Source: a virus
Taxonomy: Duplodnaviria > Heunggongvirae > Uroviricota > Caudoviricetes
Virus record (IMG/VR): IMGVR_UViG_2526164690_000042
Length of the DNA stretch: 17,689 nucleotides
Strand: one strand, 5' to 3'
Shown here: positions 1-17,469 of the stretch, piece after piece
Numbering within the stretch: the first letter of the stretch is position 1
Layout of the letters: each line of letters starts with the position of its first letter
Program-made: the position numbers and the translations under genes
The notes under the pieces: generated by a model
What the model saw: only the letters and a program-made list of their open reading frames with translations
The model's database searches: none
Told to the model about the DNA's origin: nothing

Positions 1-1119
1 TCAAACAACCAATTTAACCCATTCCTGACCACGAGTATCGTTATAACGATCGGTGGTTGCTTGGACTTTATGTCCCAGTAATGTTTTTGTATCAATACCC
101 TGCGCGCGGTACAGTCGTTCTGACAGGGAGCGTTGTTCATGAAATGTTGGCGGAGTTTTTCCTGCTGGTGGAGTTATCCCAGCCAGATCCCGTGCTTTGG
201 CAAAGTAGTCGCTCAGGTTGTCTTTACTCATCGGCTTTGGTTGTTTCTGGTGCCGACTATGGATTAGATATGGACTTAATATTCTGTCTCGGCACCCATC
301 AATAACTTCTTTTAACGTTATCCCAATGGCATCACAGCGTAGTGTAAGCGGTAACGCCAGACGCATTCCGGTTTTTCCCTGGGTGATATGCAAGTGTTCG
401 TTCCACACATCTGAAAAACGCATGTGGCAAATGTCATCACGGCGCTGACCAGTAACAATCGCAAGAAGCATTGCGTTACGGATAAAGTGTTTTTCAGGCG
501 TTGCGTTGTAAATTTTTTGCCAGTCTTCTAGGGTGAGCCTGGCTCTAGTTACTTTAGGGATCGGTTTACGGGTAGCCTCCGGAGGATTCCATCCAGGAGG
601 AACTTCCCCTGCATGCTGTGCTTCTTTATAAATATCAACCCATAATCCACGATTTACTCTCGCTGTGCTGACCATGTCTTTATCCAGCCACTCATCCAGT
701 ATTAATGCAAAGTCTCTTACTTCCAGTTCTTTCAATGGGTGGTTTCCCAGACGGGAAACCAGGTATGCAGCCATTCGGGCTTTTTCTTTGTGAGTTGTAG
801 CTGCAATATCTCCATTTTTCAGTCGCGTGTCCTGTATTTTCAGATATCGATCAACCCATGCCTTTAATCTGATACCCCGACGCTTTGTTGCTGACGGACT
901 TTCATCAATTTTGCGCATGAAATATTCAGCCTCTGCTGCAGCTATTCGCTGATTGGCTGTGGAAGCGATTTTTTCTGCCTTACCTTTGTCTGTTCCGAGC
1001 CCGTGAAATTTTCCAGTCACAGGGTTTTTATACTGGTAGTAAACTCTGCCAGTTCTGCGATCAAATTTTTCGTAAAGTCCGGCTACGTCAGTGCTGTTTT
1101 TTCGTGGCCTCGGTGACAT
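1..1119 (-). CDS. int: Lambda-type tyrosine integrase (site-specific recombinase)
   Basis: 372-aa ORF whose C-terminal half resembles lambda Int as I recall it (…VTGQRRDDICHMRFSDV…, …PPTFHEQRSLSERLY…, …GHKVQATTDRYNDTRGQEW…), with conserved R, H-x-x-R and catalytic Tyr positions. It overlaps the upstream excisionase-like ORF by about 30 nt, as in lambda. The stop codon sits at the window edge. Confidence 0.9.
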   Translation of the reverse strand: MSPRPRKNSTDVAGLYEKFDRRTGRVYYQYKNPVTGKFHGLGTDKGKAEKIASTANQRIAAAEAEYFMRKIDESPSATKRRGIRLKAWVDRYLKIQDTRLKNGDIAATTHKEKARMAAYLVSRLGNHPLKELEVRDFALILDEWLDKDMVSTARVNRGLWVDIYKEAQHAGEVPPGWNPPEATRKPIPKVTRARLTLEDWQKIYNATPEKHFIRNAMLLAIVTGQRRDDICHMRFSDVWNEHLHITQGKTGMRLALPLTLRCDAIGITLKEVIDGCRDRILSPYLIHSRHQKQPKPMSKDNLSDYFAKARDLAGITPPAGKTPPTFHEQRSLSERLYRAQGIDTKTLLGHKVQATTDRYNDTRGQEWVKLVV

Positions 1120-5182: not shown

Positions 5183-5225
5183 ACTATAGGAAATGCCTAA
5201 TTTCTTGTCAATAGGCTATGCCTAA
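5183..5225 (-). promoter_or_regulatory. Leftward early promoter (PL-like) with overlapping operator (OL-like)
   Basis: Read on the minus strand: -35 TTGACA (plus 5206..5211), 17-nt spacer, -10 TATAGT (plus 5183..5188). The half-site pair ATAGGC-N3-GCCTAA at 5211..5225 abuts the -35. A 20-mer here (tgtcaataggctatgcctaa, 5206..5225) is the exact reverse complement of 5850..5869 on the other side of the repressor gene. Confidence 0.6.
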
Positions 5226-5319: not shown

Positions 5320-5796
5320 TTAAGTTCCTGTCTTGGTGATGTTCTGGCTTTTCCGTTTTGATTCTTGATTTTTCAGATAGTTAGCTACCTTCATTTCCAT
5401 TGCGGCAATGTAGGCGCGAACGTCATGATCAACCCAACTAGGCTCCGTAGCATTTCCAGATAAGAGGAAAGCCACAATTGCTCTTTTTTCATCAGAGGCG
5501 GCTTGATAAAGGCTGTTTATGTCTAAAAGTTCACTTTTTGTATCTGAAGTGGATGGGGTTGGTATGGGGTATTCGTTAAGCCCCCAATGCTCTGGACCAA
5601 CCACATCAGAAAAGAAACGCCATAGTTCTGGAAGTTTGTCTTTACTTATCGAACCTTTCTTAATCCAGTCATGGATTGATGGTGGTTGGACTTTGAAATG
5701 ACGTGCGATTTCCGCCTTTGATTTGACGGCTCCTGATGCAATTTTTTTGTTAATGGCCTGCTCTATCGCTCGGCCTAAGTCTTTACCACTAAGCAT
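5320..5796 (-). CDS. racR: Prophage repressor, RacR-like (HTH, no LexA-type autocleavage domain apparent)
   Basis: 158-aa ORF transcribed divergently from the rightward early genes and flanked by operator/promoter modules. HTH-like segment KAEIARHFKVQPPSIHDWIKKG. An AGGAGA Shine-Dalgarno lies about 9 nt upstream. The sequence matches what I recall of E. coli Rac RacR, unverified. Confidence 0.75.
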   Translation of the reverse strand: MLSGKDLGRAIEQAINKKIASGAVKSKAEIARHFKVQPPSIHDWIKKGSISKDKLPELWRFFSDVVGPEHWGLNEYPIPTPSTSDTKSELLDINSLYQAASDEKRAIVAFLLSGNATEPSWVDHDVRAYIAAMEMKVANYLKNQESKRKSQNITKTGT

Positions 5797-5849
5797 TGCT
5801 TAATAGTCTCCTATGCGCATCGCGTTAGGCAATCCCTACTCTCGAAGCG

Positions 5850-5893
5850 TTAGGCATAGCCTATTGACAATCGCATTAGGCTAAGCCTAATAT
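5850..5893 (+). promoter_or_regulatory. Rightward early promoter (PR-like) with two palindromic operators (OR-like)
   Basis: -35 TTGACA at 5864..5869 and -10 TAATAT at 5888..5893 with an 18-nt spacer. Operators TTAGGC-ata-GCCTAT (5850..5864) and TTAGGC-taa-GCCTAA (5875..5889). An extra half-site TTAGGC lies at 5825..5830. Confidence 0.6.
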
Positions 5894-5920
5894 TATTGTG
5901 TGTTTTTTGGAGTTCATTCG

Positions 5921-6718: not shown

Positions 6719-7795
6719 GTGAGTATGGCTAACGCCTGGCTCAGATTATGGCATGACATGCCAAATGACCCTAAGTGGCGAACAATTGCCAGGGTGTCAG
6801 GGCAGCCAATTGCAACAGTGATGGCAGTGTATATCCACCTCCTGGTGAGCGCGTCACGAAATGTCACGCGAGGTCACATTGATGTCACGACAGAAGATTT
6901 GGCAAGTGCGCTCGACGTGACAGAAGAGGTAATTGATTCAATTTTGCAGACGATGCAGGGGCGGGTACTTGATGGTGATTTAATCACTGGATGGGAAAAA
7001 CGCCAGGTGCTTAAAGAGGACAACGGCAATATTTCGCAAACCGCAAAATCTCCTGCAGAGCGCAAGAGGGCGCAGCGAGAGAGGGAAAGAAAGCGGGAAC
7101 AAAATGGCGATTGTCACGGCGCGTCACGAAATGTCACGCACATGTCACGACGAGTCACGACAGATAAAGATACAGATAAAGATACAGATCAAGAAGATCA
7201 AAACACTATGGTCCATGGCGTAAAAAACGCCACGAACCAGGCAGGGGATGTTCAGACCGTCAACCCTGGTCAGCCAGCAGGCACGACACCGGAAGCCGAT
7301 TCAGCGTATGCGCTGAAAGCCGATTCGGGCGCTGTGCAGCAGGTGATGACCGCAAGGCCGGAGCAATCACACCAACTGCAGCAGCCCGAAGCCGATTCCG
7401 CCATTCAGCGGGAAGCCGATCGGGTAGTCCCGGAAAACACCGGGCAGTCTGTGGGACGAGTGGATTATCCGGATGTGTTCGAACAGGTCTGGCGGGAATA
7501 CCCGTTGCGTGCTGGGGCAAACCCGAAGAAATCCGCTTTCAGTGCCTGGAAGGCCAGATTACGCGAGGGGGTGCCACCAGAGGCCATACTGGATGGTGTG
7601 AGGCGTTACGCAAGATACCTGGCGGCTACCGGGAAAACGGGAACGGAATTTGTTCAGCGAGCGACGACGTTTTTTGGGCCGGACCGGAATTTTGAAAACC
7701 CCTGGTTGCTCCCGGTAAGCGGCACGAACAACCAGCGTTGTGTGAATCATATTTCTGAACCGGATACCGAAATTCCGCCGGGATTCAGGGGGTGA
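6719..7795 (+). CDS. Replication initiator, lambda O-like/DUF1376-type (YdaU-like) with internal origin iterons
   Basis: 358-aa ORF directly upstream of a DnaC-like loader. Two clusters of GTCACG iterons lie inside the coding sequence and are followed by an AT-rich repeat. GTG at 6719; an alternative ATG at 6725 has a better-spaced Shine-Dalgarno. Confidence 0.8.
   Translation: MSMANAWLRLWHDMPNDPKWRTIARVSGQPIATVMAVYIHLLVSASRNVTRGHIDVTTEDLASALDVTEEVIDSILQTMQGRVLDGDLITGWEKRQVLKEDNGNISQTAKSPAERKRAQRERERKREQNGDCHGASRNVTHMSRRVTTDKDTDKDTDQEDQNTMVHGVKNATNQAGDVQTVNPGQPAGTTPEADSAYALKADSGAVQQVMTARPEQSHQLQQPEADSAIQREADRVVPENTGQSVGRVDYPDVFEQVWREYPLRAGANPKKSAFSAWKARLREGVPPEAILDGVRRYARYLAATGKTGTEFVQRATTFFGPDRNFENPWLLPVSGTNNQRCVNHISEPDTEIPPGFRG
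6851..6889. repeat. Iteron cluster 1 (4 GTCACG/GTCACA copies at ~10-bp spacing) inside the initiator gene
   Basis: gcGTCACGaaatGTCACGcgagGTCACAttgatGTCACGa. The 19-bp core gcgtcacgaaatgtcacgc recurs exactly at 7121..7139. Confidence 0.6.
7111..7205. repeat. Iteron cluster 2 plus AT-rich tandem repeat: putative replication origin
   Basis: Five GTCACG copies at 7113, 7123, 7133, 7144 and 7154 (helical phasing), followed by cagataaagatacagataaagatacagatcaagaagatcaaaac. The arrangement parallels the lambda ori inside gene O. Confidence 0.6.
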
Positions 7796-7801
7796 TGTGG
7801 C

Positions 7802-8548
7802 ATGAAAAACATTGCGGCAGCCGGGGTTCTTGAACGTATTCGCAGACTTGCACCACAGGCGTCGGTTCCACCGTACCGGACGGTGGAGGAGTGGCGGGAA
7901 TGGCAACTTGTTGAAGGACGAAAACGCAGCGAGGAGATTAACCGCCAGAATCACCAGTTGCGGGTGGAAAAAATCCTGAATCGTTCGGGCATCCAGCCTC
8001 TGCACAGCAAATGCTCGTTTGCGAATTATCAGGTGCAGAACGACGGGCAAAAATACGCGCTGAGCCAGGCCAAATCCATAGCTGACGAACTGATGACCGG
8101 GTGCACGAATTTTGTGTTCAGCGGTAAAACCGGCACCGGGAAAAATCACCTTGCAGCGGCGATGGGTAACCGGCTGATGGCGAAGGGGCGCAGCGTGATT
8201 ATCGTCACCGTGTCTGATGTCATGAGCGTGTTGCATGACAGCTACGACAACGGCAAATCCGGGGAAAAATTTTTACAGGAGCTTTGCAGTGTTGATTTGC
8301 TGGTCCTGGATGAAATAGGCGTTCAGCGGGAGACGAAAAACGAGCAGGTGGTATTACACCAGATAATTGATCGCCGGACAGCATCACTGTGCAGTGTCGG
8401 GATGTTAACAAACCTGAATCATGCCGCAATGAGTACACTTCTTGGTGAGAGGATTATGGACCGCATGACCATGAACGGTGGTCGATGGGTGACGTTTAAC
8501 TGGGATAGCTGGCGTCCAAATGTCAGCAATATGAGGGTTGTGAAGTAA
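7802..8548 (+). CDS. DnaC-like replicative helicase loader (AAA+ ATPase, IstB/DnaC family)
   Basis: Walker A FSGKTGTGKNHLAAA and Walker B DLLVLDEIG. It follows the initiator gene, as lambda P or a DnaC analogue would. Confidence 0.9.
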   Translation: MKNIAAAGVLERIRRLAPQASVPPYRTVEEWREWQLVEGRKRSEEINRQNHQLRVEKILNRSGIQPLHSKCSFANYQVQNDGQKYALSQAKSIADELMTGCTNFVFSGKTGTGKNHLAAAMGNRLMAKGRSVIIVTVSDVMSVLHDSYDNGKSGEKFLQELCSVDLLVLDEIGVQRETKNEQVVLHQIIDRRTASLCSVGMLTNLNHAAMSTLLGERIMDRMTMNGGRWVTFNWDSWRPNVSNMRVVK

Positions 8549-13444: not shown

Positions 13445-13819
13445 ATGCGTATAGAGTTTGTTTTGCTTTACCCGCCGACGGTGAACACCTACTGGCGACG
13501 TCGTGGCAGCACATATTTTGTATCAAAAGCCGGTGAGCGTTATCGCCGGGCTGTGGCGCTTATTGTTCGCCAGCAGCGGCTGAAATTAAGCCTGTCCGGA
13601 AGGCTGGCGATAAAGATTATTGCCGAGCCACCGGATAAGCGCCGCCGTGACCTGGACAATATTCTGAAAGCGCCGCTGGATGCGCTGACGCATGCGGGGT
13701 TGCTAATGGACGACGAGCAGTTTGATGAAATCAATATCGTTCGTGCTCAGCCAGTATCTGGTGGACGTCTGGGGGTGAAGATTTACCCCATAATGCTTGA
13801 AGGGCAGGTCAAAAAATGA
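13445..13819 (+). CDS. rusA: Holliday junction resolvase RusA
   Basis: 124-aa protein with the RusA-like acidic catalytic region …PPDKRRRDLDNILKAPLDALTHAGLLMDDEQ…, at the canonical nin-region position just before Q. Confidence 0.9.
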   Translation: MRIEFVLLYPPTVNTYWRRRGSTYFVSKAGERYRRAVALIVRQQRLKLSLSGRLAIKIIAEPPDKRRRDLDNILKAPLDALTHAGLLMDDEQFDEINIVRAQPVSGGRLGVKIYPIMLEGQVKK

Positions 13820-14637
13820 AACTGGAAGATTTACCGAAATACTACTCCCCAAAATCCCCCGGCCTGACTGATGCATCGGCCTCAACGTCGAAAGATACGC
13901 TGAGTATCACTGATGTGATGGCCGCGCAGGGCATGACACAGAATTGGGCTGAGATGGGGTTTTCTGCGTTCCTTGGGAAAATGGGCATTAGTATGAATGA
14001 CAGAGAGCGGGCAACAGAATTGTTGACAGAATATGCACTCAGTCGGTGTGATCGCGTGGCGGCGTTAAGAAAACTCCCGGCAGAAATAAAACCGGCAGTG
14101 ATGCGTATTATGGCTTCGTATGCGTTTGAAGATTATGCCCGTAGCGCGGCGAGCAAAAAACAGTGCCCCTGTTGTCACGGAAAAAAATTTATTGAAAGCG
14201 AGGTTTTTACAAACAAGATCCAGTATCCGGATGGTAAGCCGCCAGTGTGGGCAAAGTGCACAAAAGGCGTGTATCCGTCTTACTGGGAGGAATGGAAAAA
14301 AGTCAGGGAGGTGGTAAAAGTTGCCTGTCCGGAGTGTGGAGGGAAGGGGGAGGTTTCCACCGCCTGTAAAGATTGTCGTGGGCGCGGTGTTGCCATTCAT
14401 CGTGAAGAGTCGGTAAAACGTGGTATGCCTGTTATCAGAGACTGCCAGCGTTGTGGTGGTCGTGGCTATGAAAGATTACCTTCAACGGAGGCATTTAATG
14501 CCATATGTAATGTGACCGATGCCATATCTCTTGATACATGGAAAAAAACAGTTAAACGTTTTTACGATACGCTGGTGGTGCAGTTTGATATTGAAGAAGC
14601 ATGGGCAGAACAACAACTGAAAAAGGTGACCAGATAG
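13816..14637 (+). CDS. Q: Late-gene antiterminator Q (zinc-finger type)
   Basis: 273-aa Cys-rich protein (CPCCHGK…CPECGGKG…CKDCRGRG…CQRCGGRG). ATGA overlap with rusA. A PR'/qut-like sequence and terminator follow immediately. Confidence 0.8.
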   Translation: MKLEDLPKYYSPKSPGLTDASASTSKDTLSITDVMAAQGMTQNWAEMGFSAFLGKMGISMNDRERATELLTEYALSRCDRVAALRKLPAEIKPAVMRIMASYAFEDYARSAASKKQCPCCHGKKFIESEVFTNKIQYPDGKPPVWAKCTKGVYPSYWEEWKKVREVVKVACPECGGKGEVSTACKDCRGRGVAIHREESVKRGMPVIRDCQRCGGRGYERLPSTEAFNAICNVTDAISLDTWKKTVKRFYDTLVVQFDIEEAWAEQQLKKVTR

Positions 14638-14781: not shown

Positions 14782-14857
14782 GGCCCTTTAGCTCAGTGGT
14801 GAGAGCGAGCGACTCATAATCGCCAGGTCGCTGGTTCAAATCCAGCAAGGGCCACCA
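14782..14857 (+). tRNA. tRNA with CAU anticodon; ileX/ileZ-like (tRNA-Ile2, lysidine-type) rather than tRNA-Met
   Basis: Cloverleaf readable by eye: acceptor GGCCCTT/AAGGGCC, D-arm GCTC…GAGC, anticodon loop CTCATAA, T-arm GCTGG-TTCAAAT-CCAGC, 3' ACCA. Overall sequence is close to what I recall of E. coli ileX. Confidence 0.85.
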
Positions 14858-14967
14858 TCACAAACCGCCATTAGCTTATCAGGAAGAGCAGACGACACCA
14901 TAACAGGGTTGTTGGTGCGGGGGCGGGTCCCCGATGGCGGTCCATTATCGGTATTCTGCGTTGTTAG

Positions 14968-15044
14968 CTCAGCCGGACAGAGCAATTGCCTTCTAAGCAA
15001 TCGGTCAGTGGTTCGACTCCACTACAACGCGCCACACTTATTTT
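14968..15044 (+). tRNA. tRNA-Arg (anticodon UCU, reads AGA/AGG)
   Basis: Acceptor GCGTTGT/ACAACGC, D-arm GCTC…GAGC, anticodon stem ATTGC/GCAAT with loop CTTCTAA, T-arm AGTGG-TTCGACT-CCACT, 3' GCCA. Confidence 0.85.
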
Positions 15045-16205: not shown

Positions 16206-16460
16206 ATGACATTTAAACATTATGATGTTGTCAGGGCGGCGTCGCCGTCAGACCTTGCGGAAAAGCTGACACACAAACTGAAAGAGGGCTGGCAGCCGTT
16301 TGGTAGACCGAAGAAAACAAATAAAATCAGTGTAATACGTGAAATTGCTGAAAAGTTAATCAAATTTAACACCAAGAAAAATCAAGGTATTAGGAAGTTG
16401 CTCATAGCTAGTATACCAAGTCTTTTTGCCAGAAATTTTTCTGGATTGTCTACTTGCTAA
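16206..16460 (+). CDS. DUF1737-like small phage protein, probably with an altered or chimeric C-terminus
   Basis: The N-terminus MTFKHYDVVRAASPSDLAEKLTHKLKEGWQPFG resembles a small conserved late-region protein of lambdoid phages as I recall it. The remaining ~50 aa are Lys-rich, and the stop overlaps the 3' end of the convergent integrase gene. Confidence 0.4.
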   Translation: MTFKHYDVVRAASPSDLAEKLTHKLKEGWQPFGRPKKTNKISVIREIAEKLIKFNTKKNQGIRKLLIASIPSLFARNFSGLSTC

Positions 16461-17469
16461 CCACGAGCGGCAAATCCAGTGTTGGTGTGATTTTTGTTTT
16501 ACGATCGTAAATCAACACCTGATTTTCTGTTTTATGCCCGCTGAAAATTTGTTTGTCGCGACTGCTGCCTTCGTAATCTGAGATCCCCTTGGCTTTTATG
16601 TCGTGAAAATTGCACCCGAACGGAACGCCAACTTTTTGCTCGGCTGCGCGTTTAGCCTGATTCCACCAGTTATTCAGCGTTTTAGCTATGACTTTCCCGC
16701 CTTTGGTTGTATTGATCACATATTCGCATGTACAGGAAGATACATTTCGGGCTAACTGGATCGCTGTACGTAATCGCGGTGACCATTCCTTGATTTGTTT
16801 GGTGCCGGTTTTGTTTTGCTCAATGTAGATCCCTTTATCCATAATATCCTGCCATTTCAACTCAAGCACATCACCGAGTCTTGCCGCACAGAGATAGGAA
16901 ATCTCCATTGCAATGCGTAACTGTGGAATTGCTTCCGCATATATCGCCGCATACTGTTCATCGGTGATGTAAACAGTGCGGGCTTTAAGAGAGAATTTTC
17001 TGACTCCTTTGCATGGGTTATTCTTCACATACCCACGCTCATATCCCCACCCGTATACTCGACTCAGGCTTGCCAGTTCATGATTTGCCTGGGTCTTGCT
17101 CTCAAGCCCTCGTTTATCCATGAAAATTCTTACCTGCTCAGTTTTGACATTATCAGCAAGCACTTTTCCGAATACCATCAGCAACGCCTTCTGATGTTGT
17201 CGATAATCTTTTTGGGTTCGGGGGGCCAGTTCTGTAAATGCAGGGGAGTCCATAAACATGTGCCATAATTTAGCTACGGTCATTATGTTGTGGAGTTTTG
17301 CTTTTTCCAGTTCATAATTTTGCCAGACTTTAGCTACGCTGGTTTTCCGCACTCTTCCTAGCCCTATACTTCTTGTACTTCCTTCGGGTTTCCACACGTA
17401 ACTGTAACCATTCGATCTAACCCGCGGTGGCAGTACATTATCTTTTTTATTTTTTCTTGGTCTTCCCAT
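16450..17469 (-). CDS. int: Second tyrosine integrase (phage integrase family), unrelated in sequence to the first
   Basis: 339-aa ORF with a C-terminal catalytic region (…RLGDVLELKWQDI…, …FHDIKAKGISDY…, …GHKTENQVLIYDRK…) carrying R, H-x-x-(R/K) and Tyr positions. An excisionase-like ORF overlaps its start. Confidence 0.85.
   Translation of the reverse strand: MGRPRKNKKDNVLPPRVRSNGYSYVWKPEGSTRSIGLGRVRKTSVAKVWQNYELEKAKLHNIMTVAKLWHMFMDSPAFTELAPRTQKDYRQHQKALLMVFGKVLADNVKTEQVRIFMDKRGLESKTQANHELASLSRVYGWGYERGYVKNNPCKGVRKFSLKARTVYITDEQYAAIYAEAIPQLRIAMEISYLCAARLGDVLELKWQDIMDKGIYIEQNKTGTKQIKEWSPRLRTAIQLARNVSSCTCEYVINTTKGGKVIAKTLNNWWNQAKRAAEQKVGVPFGCNFHDIKAKGISDYEGSSRDKQIFSGHKTENQVLIYDRKTKITPTLDLPLVVSK

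Follow-up and report, generated by a model that had tools for sequence, protein, structure and literature searches.

Can a stretch of DNA that is translated as part of a replication protein also be the site at which replication starts? The question is raised by positions 6849–7239 of the window, by which we mean the whole 17,689-nt (17.7-kb) stretch of phage DNA analysed here. We consider it likely that this segment is a theta-type origin of a Rac-like lambdoid prophage, lying inside its own initiator gene; we infer the origin activity from the anatomy of the element, the DNA-level selection on its two iteron arrays and the concerted change of both, the modular architecture of the gene, and its genomic context. 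The second array, an AT-rich repeat and a palindrome look like the core origin; on the predicted structure of the protein, they fall in a disordered linker. The first array is probably an auxiliary binding array for the encoded replisome organizer, and the part of the DNA-binding domain that it encodes is a hypervariable surface loop.

The organizer gene and its repeats

The gene at 6725–7795 (+ strand) encodes a replisome organizer (initiator) of 356 aa. The preliminary description had called it a replication initiator gene, and a full-length match to phrog_3729 ('replication initiation protein') together with the NCBI name 'phage replisome organizer' supported this assignment. The protein consists of a winged-helix N-domain (aa 1–95), a helix (aa 110–128), a disordered linker (aa ~134–245), and a helical C-domain (aa 249–317), and its C-terminal tail is DnaT/YdaU-like. 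The N-domain is a DnaD-NTD-like winged helix: DnaD-NTD was the closest structure by rmsd, and winged-helix domains of plasmid Rep and ORC proteins were also matched. Foldseek with the organizer gave no significant match, a profile search against PDB sequences gave none, and no Pfam family was found at E ≤ 0.01; at E ≤ 10, Pfam returned only HTH_Crp_2, Phage_rep_org_N, and PhyR_sigma2. The match to Phage_rep_org_N (PF09681/TIGR01714; SPP1 G38P type) was sub-threshold, at 12.8–16.5 bits versus 23.3 for Pfam. Membership in the lambda O family was rejected, there being no Phage_rep_O match. Some GenBank records of homologues read 'replication protein O', as annotation only.

Array 1 (6849–6889, + strand) comprises four sites, GTCACG at 6853, 6863, and 6884 and GTCACA at 6873, spaced 10, 10, and 11 bp apart. 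Array 2 (7113–7159, + strand), the candidate core initiator-binding site, comprises five, with GTCACG at 7113, 7123, 7133, 7144, and 7154 and spacings of 10, 10, 11, and 10 bp. The hexamer consensus is GTCAC(G/A), and 229 bp separate the last hexamer of array 1 from the first of array 2 (start to start). A single inverted hexamer (6916–6921, − strand; CGTGAC on the + strand) follows the last direct unit of array 1 at a start-to-start distance of 32 bp and encodes D64-V65-T66 in the HTH turn. Counting both strands, the window held 17 copies of GTCACG versus 6.9 ± 2.5 in dinucleotide shuffles, and none of 200 shuffles reached 17; five copies fell within 50 bp, against a maximum of two in 1000 Markov simulations. 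No third, oriR-like GTCACG array was found elsewhere in the 17.7-kb window, and phage Tritos, which has a 98% identical organizer, showed no GTCAC cluster beyond these two arrays in its complete genome. DnaA boxes (TTWTNCACA) were absent between 6000 and 9000.

These positions and spacings bear out the earlier report of GTCACG hexamers at ~10-bp intervals in two clusters. The exact core common to the clusters, given there as 19 bp, measured 21 bp (GCGCGTCACGAAATGTCACGC, at 6849–6869 and 7119–7139). The repeated peptides ASRNVTR (aa 43–49) and ASRNVTH (aa 133–139) and the acidic linker DKDTDKDTD were all found as described, and so was the tandem repeat after the second cluster (ACAGATAAAGAT, 2.9 copies at 7160–7194, 95% matches). 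The hexamers occur in all three codon phases. Array 1 encodes aa 43–56, that is, the end of helix 29–45 and the loop preceding the HTH. Array 2 lies within the predicted disordered linker (aa 130–146), and both it and the AT-rich tract map to linker with a pLDDT below 50 in the predicted structure.

The tandem repeat is part of an AT-rich, purine-skewed tract at 7160–7205 with GATAMA every 6 bp, a candidate DNA unwinding element, which contains GATC sites at 7187 and 7196. Positions 7164–7203 rank third among the least stable 40-mers in the window (top 0.12%). The tract is modest, with ~45 bp at ~35–38% GC, which we counted against the origin reading. Directly to its right lies an imperfect palindrome (7209–7239; TGGTCCATGGCGT-AAAAA-ACGCCACGAACCA), which forms a hairpin when folded as ssDNA (−8.7 kcal/mol, z = −2.85). 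Among 40 homologous loci, a GC-rich palindrome 41–64 nt past the last iteron was enriched, with 47.5% of loci at or above the 90th percentile of the controls (p = 2e-6). The palindrome of phage POCJ13, read by eye, carries a paired T..A to A..T change. As in iteron-type theta origins, the repeats are specific, selected as DNA, and co-vary with their presumed cognate initiator, and they adjoin an element of low stability (7164–7203, GC 0.35–0.38) that is a candidate for unwinding.

The lambda origin has four iterons of ~19 bp, each with internal dyad symmetry and each a binding site for an O dimer, and a palindrome to the right of its AT-rich tract. It is situated in the middle of the initiator gene O, in the part for the interdomain linker, with iterons followed by the AT-rich unwinding tract; the Stx phages 933W and P27 have six-iteron origins, in which the extra iterons add 13 aa to Stx O (PMC7466680). 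The lambda ori architecture that had been proposed for the present locus holds for the layout, since array 2 and then the AT-rich repeat lie within ORF 6725–7795, but not for the initiator, which is not a lambda O homologue. The direct units here are 10–11 bp long with a 6-bp non-palindromic core, in contrast to the ~19-bp iterons of lambda; a second array lies 229 bp upstream, within the segment coding for the DNA-binding domain; and the loader is DnaC-like and not P. On the other hand, extra iterons lengthen the initiator here too (by 7 aa in the E. coli 755 homologue), and in both systems an origin-binding N-module and a loader-binding C-module recombine at the origin.

In the Bacillus phage SPP1, the replisome organizer G38P binds oriL, which consists of AB-box repeats and an AT-rich DUE within gene 38, and both organizer binding to the repeats and origin-dependent replication have been assayed; a second G38P-binding region, oriR, is intergenic, ~13 kb off, and has its own AT-rich tract (PMC6316719, PMC5737612). 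Our locus resembles the SPP1 system (G38P, the G39P loader, and the G40P helicase) in the replisome-organizer class of its initiator and in the embedding of the putative origin in the initiator's own gene, and one homologous locus has a G39P-like gene downstream. It differs in that the sequence relationship to G38P is sub-threshold only and that the second array is 229 bp away in the same gene, without an AT-rich tract. An origin embedded in an initiator gene is already known from lambda ori and SPP1 oriL, and the two-part layout is what is new. The literature searched contained no experimental data on the element (replication assay, footprint) and no earlier account of this layout. The papers searched on the organizer gene gave no origin description, a study of the Eru replication types of Stx phages is silent on origins and DnaC (PMC8044961), and a search on TGTCACG iterons returned unrelated plasmid papers only.

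Two arrays with different distributions among homologues

The preliminary description regarded the origin architecture as duplicated about 260 bp apart. The iteron array is indeed doubled, but the origin is not, as array 1 has neither an AT-rich tract nor a palindrome of its own. When cluster number was compared among relatives, both arrays were present in 52 homologous loci from several phyla, in hosts with GC from 0.40 to 0.67. A recent duplication in this prophage was accordingly rejected, the two-part layout being an old feature of the family. Loci without GTCAC have GTAACG or CGAACG, at both array places. In 80 viral-contig loci that match the N-terminal 125 aa of the query at 100% identity, a set used for layout stability and not for divergence, the 4+5 layout was stable and the number of AT-rich repeats variable; E. 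coli copies have 2 to 5 repeat units. Repeats of (C/A)AGATA follow array 2 in distant homologues too. A conserved helical phase between the arrays was rejected, because their start-to-start distances were 240, 250, 258–260, 278, 281, 309, and 350 bp.

Array 2 occurs in all iteron classes and in homologues without array 1. Array 1 is missing from the most divergent homologues (L121, L136, L113, L116, and L127), which retain array 2 and a purine/AT-rich tract, and it is thus dispensable in these lineages. Where it is present, its copy number ranges from 3 to 6 or more, and insertions of 21 bp give some relatives two further units.

Two separate clusters of one short initiator-binding repeat are known from satellite phage P4 (ori and crr) and from the P1 and F plasmids (incC/incA). 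The crr of P4 is a required enhancer and the incA of P1 a copy-control set, the other cluster being the initiation site. The initiators P4 alpha and P1 RepA are unrelated to the organizer, and these clusters are untranslated, outside or flanking the initiator gene, and kilobases apart in P4.

It is possible, if somewhat unlikely, that the origin comprises array 2, the AT-rich tract, and the palindrome only, and that array 1 is purely regulatory. By binding close to the 5' end of the gene that encodes it, the initiator could block RNA polymerase and autorepress the replication operon, or array 1 could titrate or handcuff the initiator and limit re-initiation, like the control iterons of the P1 and F plasmids. 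Besides the missing tract and palindrome, the absence of array 1 from divergent homologues, and its variable copy number, this proposal gains from the position of array 1, which lies only 129 nt into the organizer gene and downstream of a pR-like promoter. However, binding of the same protein and concerted iteron change are predicted equally by a positive auxiliary role, with which regulation is compatible, and the weakly bound distal iterons in Stx-phage origins are still needed for replication (PMC7466680). In our preferred reading, array 1, with its four direct sites and one inverted site, would be a second array for the organizer and would act together with array 2 through looping or wrapping, and it may also let the organizer throttle transcription of its own operon.

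Module exchange and genomic context

The organizer gene is followed by a DnaC-like helicase-loader gene (7802–8548, + strand, 248 aa), whose product would work with the C-terminal module of the organizer. The loader matched IstB_IS21 (E = 2.9e-19), NF009043 (E = 5e-153), DnaC NF005931 (E = 6e-89), and phrog_50. Thus, as expected for a replisome organizer, a loader or helicase gene adjoins and the repeats are embedded in the organizer gene. Among 43 homologous loci, 11 had a lambda-P-like gene downstream, 5 a DnaC/IstB-like gene, 3 a DnaB helicase gene, and 1 a G39P-like gene. Upstream, a pR-like promoter (TTGACA-18-TAATAT; 5864–5893, + strand) was found by consensus scan only, with 10/12 matches, and is surrounded by operator-like repeated motifs (GCGTTAGGC/GCATTAGGC). 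Its position between a divergent repressor gene (5320–5796, − strand) and the cro-like YdaS gene suggests that the YdaS/YdaT/organizer/loader operon would be transcribed from it, through the origin. Of 5426 complete E. coli genomes, 2509 contained the organizer gene, 1647 of them with at least 80% of its length matched, and it also occurs in viable phages, such as Tritos and Evi. Its relatives are found in Gamma-, Beta-, and Alphaproteobacteria and Acidobacteria.

We compared the window with five distant loci by tblastx. The organizer N-module was the sole common coding segment in four of them, among these L121, which has CGAACG iterons; in the fifth, L103, a DnaC-like loader was common as well. 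The break between the N- and C-modules (query nt 458/476) falls in the AT-rich repeat, and this repeat is the recombination joint where the two modules are exchanged. A joint at this place explains how the origin-binding and loader-recruiting halves are shuffled among prophages.

The Rac prophage of E. coli K-12, for which an active origin, oriJ, has been reported (PMC3945230), offers a close comparison. Its ydaU-ydaV region has the same operon of YdaS, YdaT, organizer, DnaC-like YdaV, and DUF1627/YdaW. Inside ydaU, direct repeats are followed by the AATAAAGATACAGATAAAGATC element with its two GATC sites, as in our organizer gene, and YdaU has the C-terminal IPPGFRG tail in common with our organizer. 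YdaU differs in its unrelated DUF1376 N-domain and in its repeats (AAGCAGATGTTCAA, four copies), and no second array was seen in the part of ydaU coding for the N-domain. The (C/A)AGATA repeats are nevertheless present in ydaU despite the unrelated N-domain. Phage POCJ13 has another unrelated N-module, in which a search for iterons gave no repeated 7-mer other than a (GAACAG)3 linker repeat.

The arrays could be genuine cis-elements that serve a binder other than the organizer, or a role other than initiation (a transcription factor, packaging, or partition). A comparison of homologues lends this some support, because the predicted recognition helix (aa 67–77) does not follow the iteron class and no class-specific residues were evident in it. 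We nevertheless regard it as very unlikely: in the loci compared, only the organizer N-module travels with the arrays (GTCACG in the Pseudomonas phage, Aquitalea, and Entomomonas; CGAACG in Edaphobacter), the neighbouring genes are helicase loaders and helicases, arrays followed by an AT-rich tract and a palindrome form an origin signature, and the scan for DnaA boxes found none.

Under the organizer-dependent origin that we favour, the winged-helix N-domain would bind the 6-bp GTCACG cores, which, occurring once per helical turn, would align the bound proteins on one face of the DNA. Array 2, with its five sites, would form the core and abut the (GATAMA)n AT-rich tract, where the duplex may open, with the palindrome next to it. 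The DnaD/DnaT-like C-terminal module would then recruit the helicase via the adjoining DnaC-like loader; in relatives, its partner may instead be a lambda-P-like loader, a phage DnaB, or a G39P-like loader.

Selection on the iterons as DNA

We examined codon choice in 21 diverged homologues. Codons with their third base in an array-1 hexamer were nearly fixed: GTC in 21/21, ACG in 21/21, GGT in 21/21, and CAC in 20/20. The mean top-codon fraction was 0.956 for these codons versus 0.546 at 42 other conserved residues (p = 1.2e-6), and at R49, in a spacer, all four CGN codons occur among the homologues. In the inverted hexamer, V65 was GTG in 19/19 homologues; this hexamer is invariant in an alignment that includes the Pseudomonas phage, and GTGAC is found at gene position ~193 in most GTCACG-type loci (181 in loci matched only from residue 5 onwards).

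The three iteron classes are interleaved on a tree of the domain scaffold, on which the lineages of each class are polyphyletic. This suggests several independent iteron switches, each of which hit both arrays. Gene conversion between the arrays could mimic such co-selection. Taken together, the comparison of homologues shows that both arrays are selected as DNA and not as peptide, and that the DNA repeats give rise to the repeated peptides as a by-product.

The converse, that the protein's need for a peptide motif (ASRNVT, VT, or SR) produced the repeats and the DNA periodicity is secondary, could draw on the near-invariance of SRNVTRGH..VT in GTCACG-type homologues and of S134, R135, V144, and T145 (invariant) in the linker, but is scarcely credible given that one hexamer is read in three phases as S-R, V-T, and x-H, that synonymous positions are frozen in the hexamers whereas the same amino acids elsewhere use every codon, that a different hexamer in other lineages yields the unrelated NATERGRTQ and CNAVKRGETQC at both places, and that array 2 lies in a predicted disordered linker.

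The loop encoded by array 1 varies in length from 11 to 34 aa among homologues. The array-1 iterons might dictate this surface loop in the domain by which they are themselves recognised, with the loop joining in recognition of the sites or in oligomerisation along the array. We think this unlikely, although it would explain the repeated switching among GTCACG, GTAACG, and CGAACG in both arrays of scaffolds that are ~80% identical and carry differing iteron classes.

The present analysis provides a testable base-pair map of what would be a very common non-lambda origin of lambdoid and Stx-related prophages, and sets a core (array 2, unwinding tract, and palindrome) apart from a probable auxiliary array. 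The iteron classes form a natural series of specificity switches, which is material for studying the co-evolution of initiator and origin where the origin is translated. If the array-1 loop does take part in recognition or oligomerisation, a change of iteron would automatically alter the protein, and prophages would have a built-in route to mutually incompatible replicons.

Genomic setting and the organizer protein

The window is the early region of an E. coli lambdoid prophage, with 100% identity to E. coli O103 RM8385. Integrase and exonuclease genes, a divergent repressor gene, and genes for cro-like YdaS and YdaT precede a 356-aa gene (6725-7795, + strand), which is followed by genes for a DnaC-like loader (7802-8548), DUF1627, DUF968, RusA, and antiterminator Q, and then by two tRNA genes. 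The latter, tRNA-Met(CAT) at 14782-14857 and tRNA-Arg(TCT) at 14958-15034, lie just downstream of the Q gene (13816-14637), a typical layout in Stx-type lambdoid prophages. Two integrase-family genes are present at 1-1119 (-) and 16450-17469 (-); the one at 16450-17469, beyond the Q/tRNA region, may mean that the prophage is mosaic or adjoins another element there. The repressor/cro intergenic region (5797-5900) contains a TTGACA-18-TAATAT promoter surrounded by GCGTTAGGC / GCATTAGGC(TAAGCCTAAT) in three or four copies, which probably serve as operators for this immunity type. CCTAAT is found again at 5196, 5221, and 5240.

The 356-aa protein matched phrog_3729 'replication initiation protein' across its entire length and is named 'phage replisome organizer' in RefSeq, in agreement with the preliminary description, which had placed the repeat clusters inside a replication initiator gene. 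A Pfam search with this organizer gave nothing above threshold; the whole Phage_rep_org_N profile was aligned with a sub-threshold score of 12.8-16.5 bits (cut-off 23.3). Homology to lambda O was rejected, the protein having no above-threshold Pfam match. In an AlphaFold2 model based on 67 homologues, the N-domain (aa 1-95) was confident, its block-mean pLDDT exceeding 90 for the greater part of aa 11-90. It was followed by a helix at aa 110-128, a linker that is disordered at aa ~134-245, and a helical C-domain. At the C terminus is a tail similar to DnaT and Rac YdaU.

Iterons, AT-rich tract, and palindrome

Within the organizer gene, array 1 (6849-6889) carries GTCACG at 6853, 6863, and 6884 and GTCACA at 6873, and array 2 (7113-7159) carries GTCACG at 7113, 7123, 7133, 7144, and 7154, all on the + strand; a single inverted copy is located at 6916-6921. 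The start-to-start spacings are 10, 10, and 11 bp in array 1, 229 bp between the arrays, and 10, 10, 11, and 10 bp in array 2. GTCACG occurs 17 times on both strands of the window, compared with 6.9 +/- 2.5 in dinucleotide-preserving shuffles (0/200 reached 17), and first-order Markov simulations (n=1000) gave at most two copies within 50 bp, where array 2 has five. The clustering at ~10-bp intervals reported in the preliminary description is therefore real, and the peptides quoted there were correct on translation. The exact core shared by both arrays was also present, at 21 bp (GCGCGTCACGAAATGTCACGC, 6849-6869 and 7119-7139) slightly longer than the 19 bp claimed. The hexamers use all three codon phases (S-R, V-T, and x-H). 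In the AlphaFold2 model, array 1 encodes aa 43-56, where helix 29-45 ends and the loop leading to the helix-turn-helix lies, the inverted hexamer encodes the turn of that motif (aa 64-66), and array 2 with the AT-rich repeat encodes aa 130-158 in the disordered linker.

The AT-rich tandem repeat expected after the second cluster was found at 7160-7194 (ACAGATAAAGAT x2.9, 95% matches by Tandem Repeats Finder) and lies among the least stable duplex in the window: by nearest-neighbour stability, 7164-7203 is the third least stable 40-mer in 17.7 kb (top 0.12%). GATC sites are located at 7187 and 7196. Immediately to the right is an imperfect palindrome (7209-7239), which folded as single-stranded DNA at -8.7 kcal/mol (z = -2.85). 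Among 40 loci, a GC-rich palindrome 41-64 nt past the last iteron was enriched (p = 2e-6; 47.5% at or above the control-window 90th percentile), and its sequence varies from locus to locus (CGCGCACGTGCGCG, CCCCCGCCAGCGGGGG, AATATCACCTAACGGTGATATT, and others). Many loci have (C/A)AGATA hexamer repeats, encoding DKDK or DTDT, after array 2; the number of units reaches eight in L127.

Shigella phage POCJ13 (L139, 1317-1546) has only the C-module, the C-terminal half of the organizer, in common; its linker (GAACAG)3 is followed by the palindrome of the window, in which a paired change replaces T..A by A..T. These features hint at a palindrome that moves together with the C-module and is subject to structural selection. 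A 36-nt direct repeat in the disordered linker (CCGGAAGCCGATTCAGCG..., 7289-7324 and 7385-7420, 75% identical), which encodes PEADSA twice, is shared with POCJ13.

Rac ydaU encodes an unrelated N-domain (DUF1376), yet it carries the AATAAAGATACAGATAAAGATC element of the window, again with two GATC sites, after another repeat set. In E. coli K-12 Rac (L005, 3472-3660), four AAGCAGATGTTCAA-like repeats, AATAAAGATACAGATAAAGATC, and a CCCCCCC..CCCCCCCGGGGG palindrome follow one another, a candidate base-pair position for oriJ.

Conservation, iteron classes, and modularity

In the comparison of cluster number proposed in the preliminary description, close E. coli relatives and Pseudomonas phage phita81A (69.5% organizer identity over aa 1-138) retained both arrays, the inverted site, and AGATAAAGATACAGA. 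A 21-bp insertion lengthens array 1 by two units in E. coli 755 and FDAARGOS_1283, and variation in SJC33 and several IMG/VR copies is confined to the AT-rich unit number (2 to 5). Phage Tritos, whose organizer is 98% identical, has no GTCAC cluster besides the two arrays anywhere in its complete genome. Scanning one genome per species with a degenerate pattern yielded 52 loci, which belong to Gamma-, Beta-, and Alphaproteobacteria, Acidobacteria, and others; in about 26, GTCAC arrays occupied gene positions ~129-160 and ~387-420, at a host-region GC of 0.40 to 0.67.

Codon use was compared in 21 gapless GTCACG-type homologues at conserved residues whose third codon base lies inside a hexamer. 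V47 (GTC), T48 (ACG), G50 (GGT), and V54 (GTC) were invariant (21/21 each), as were H51 (CAC, 20/20) and V65 (GTG, 19/19), and S44 was TCA in 20/21. The mean top-codon fraction was 0.956 in 10 in-hexamer columns versus 0.546 in 42 other conserved columns (Mann-Whitney p = 1.2e-6); in the latter, every codon of V, T, G, and S is used. The spacer residue R49 is encoded by any of the four CGN codons. Shared ancestry does not explain the frozen codons, because both column sets come from the same sequences, and the scan does not bias codon choice, because it back-translates degenerately.

More distant homologues lack GTCAC and repeat a different hexamer at both array places: GTAACG (L107, L111, L115, L118, L125, L126) or CGAACG/GAACGC (L114, L117, L119, L120, L122, L123, L124, L128, L130). 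The classes are interleaved on a domain-scaffold tree from which the array-1 loop was left out: the nearest to L107 and L111 (GTAACG) is L110 (GTCACG, 81% identity), the nearest to L118 (GTAACG) is L095 (GTCACG, 80%), and L112 (GTCACG) falls among CGAACG loci. Several independent switches therefore occurred, each altering both arrays. The N-module, the N-terminal half, is the sole coding segment common to the window and the Pseudomonas-phage, Aquitalea, Entomomonas, and Edaphobacter loci. The simplest reading of these sequences is that both arrays are binding sites for the organizer's own N-domain. The array-1-encoded loop is hypervariable in length (11 to 34 aa). Loops of ancestral appearance include E-R-G; GAACG is already part of its codons, GAA CGN, which suggests a route by which an array could have been seeded; there is a small chance that the iterons are self-referentially coupled with the loop they encode. 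In L129 (Serratia MAG) and L135 (Pantoea), the N-domain is fused at gene nt ~320-700 to a GIY-YIG-nuclease-like segment (YVYYV...GISRNPWAR, assigned by eye), and ACTACG repeats stand where the linker and iterons normally are.

Array 1 is missing from the most divergent homologues, which retain array 2 followed by a purine/AT-rich tract, with seven CGAACGC units in L121, five AACGCCAG units in L136, and one or two weak units in the low-GC loci L113, L116, and L127. Since these elements are kept and the downstream palindrome is enriched, the iterons, AT-rich tract, and palindrome make up the conserved core, and array 1, found in all three iteron classes, is an addition.

Megablast matches in E. 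coli genomes are interrupted within the AT-rich repeat, at query nt 458/476 (window 7182/7200). The N-module, which comprises the DNA-binding domain, the two arrays, and the putative unwinding tract, is joined to the window's own C-module and a DnaC-like loader, to a 'DnaT-like' C-module and a lambda-P-like loader, or to the window's C-module without any phage loader gene, as in the viable phage Tritos and SJC33. In Tritos (L138, 32105-33638) and E. coli SJC33 (L004, 501-2052), the organizer has 97-98% DNA identity, the DnaC-like loader gene is absent, and a DUF977 or hypothetical gene comes next; therefore, the phage DnaC paralogue seems optional for this C-module. Among 43 loci, the downstream gene was P-like in 11, DnaC/IstB-like in 5, DnaB helicase in 3, and G39P-like in 1. 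Such variety is expected for an origin-binding module with interchangeable helicase-recruiting modules.

Proposed origin and comparison with known systems

In the proposed mechanism, a pR-like promoter (5864-5893, predicted by consensus scan only) would transcribe the organizer gene, and winged-helix domains of the organizer would fill the once-per-turn GTCACG cores of array 2. The adjoining (GATAMA)n tract would then melt, and the C-module would recruit DnaB via the DnaC-like loader. Array 1 and the inverted site, 229 bp upstream, would bind more organizer. For their role we favour a cooperative loop or wrap between the arrays that would stabilise the complex. Autorepression by roadblock, or titration, through array 1 is a serious alternative, and it is compatible with the loop or wrap. 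P4 ori/crr and P1 incC/incA, also two-cluster systems, offer analogies.

The lambda ori lies mid-gene O with four iterons and an AT-rich tract, and Stx phages have six iterons, adding 13 aa to O (PMC7466680). In SPP1, the replisome organizer G38P binds oriL, which is inside gene 38 (PMC6316719, PMC5737612), and the Rac prophage has an active origin, oriJ (PMC3945230). The preliminary reading as a lambda-type ori was essentially correct: iterons followed by an AT-rich tract inside an initiator gene are a kind known from lambda and SPP1 oriL, and the organizer core has iterons, AT-rich tract, and palindrome in the same order as lambda ori. Three features set the element described here apart: it has a short unit (a 6-bp core every 10-11 bp), the organizer belongs to a different protein family, and its gene has a second, concertedly evolving array within the coding sequence of the DNA-binding domain. 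No published description of an origin in this gene was found in the literature searched. We conclude that this kind of origin is already known and that its two-array form in the organizer gene is a new variation.
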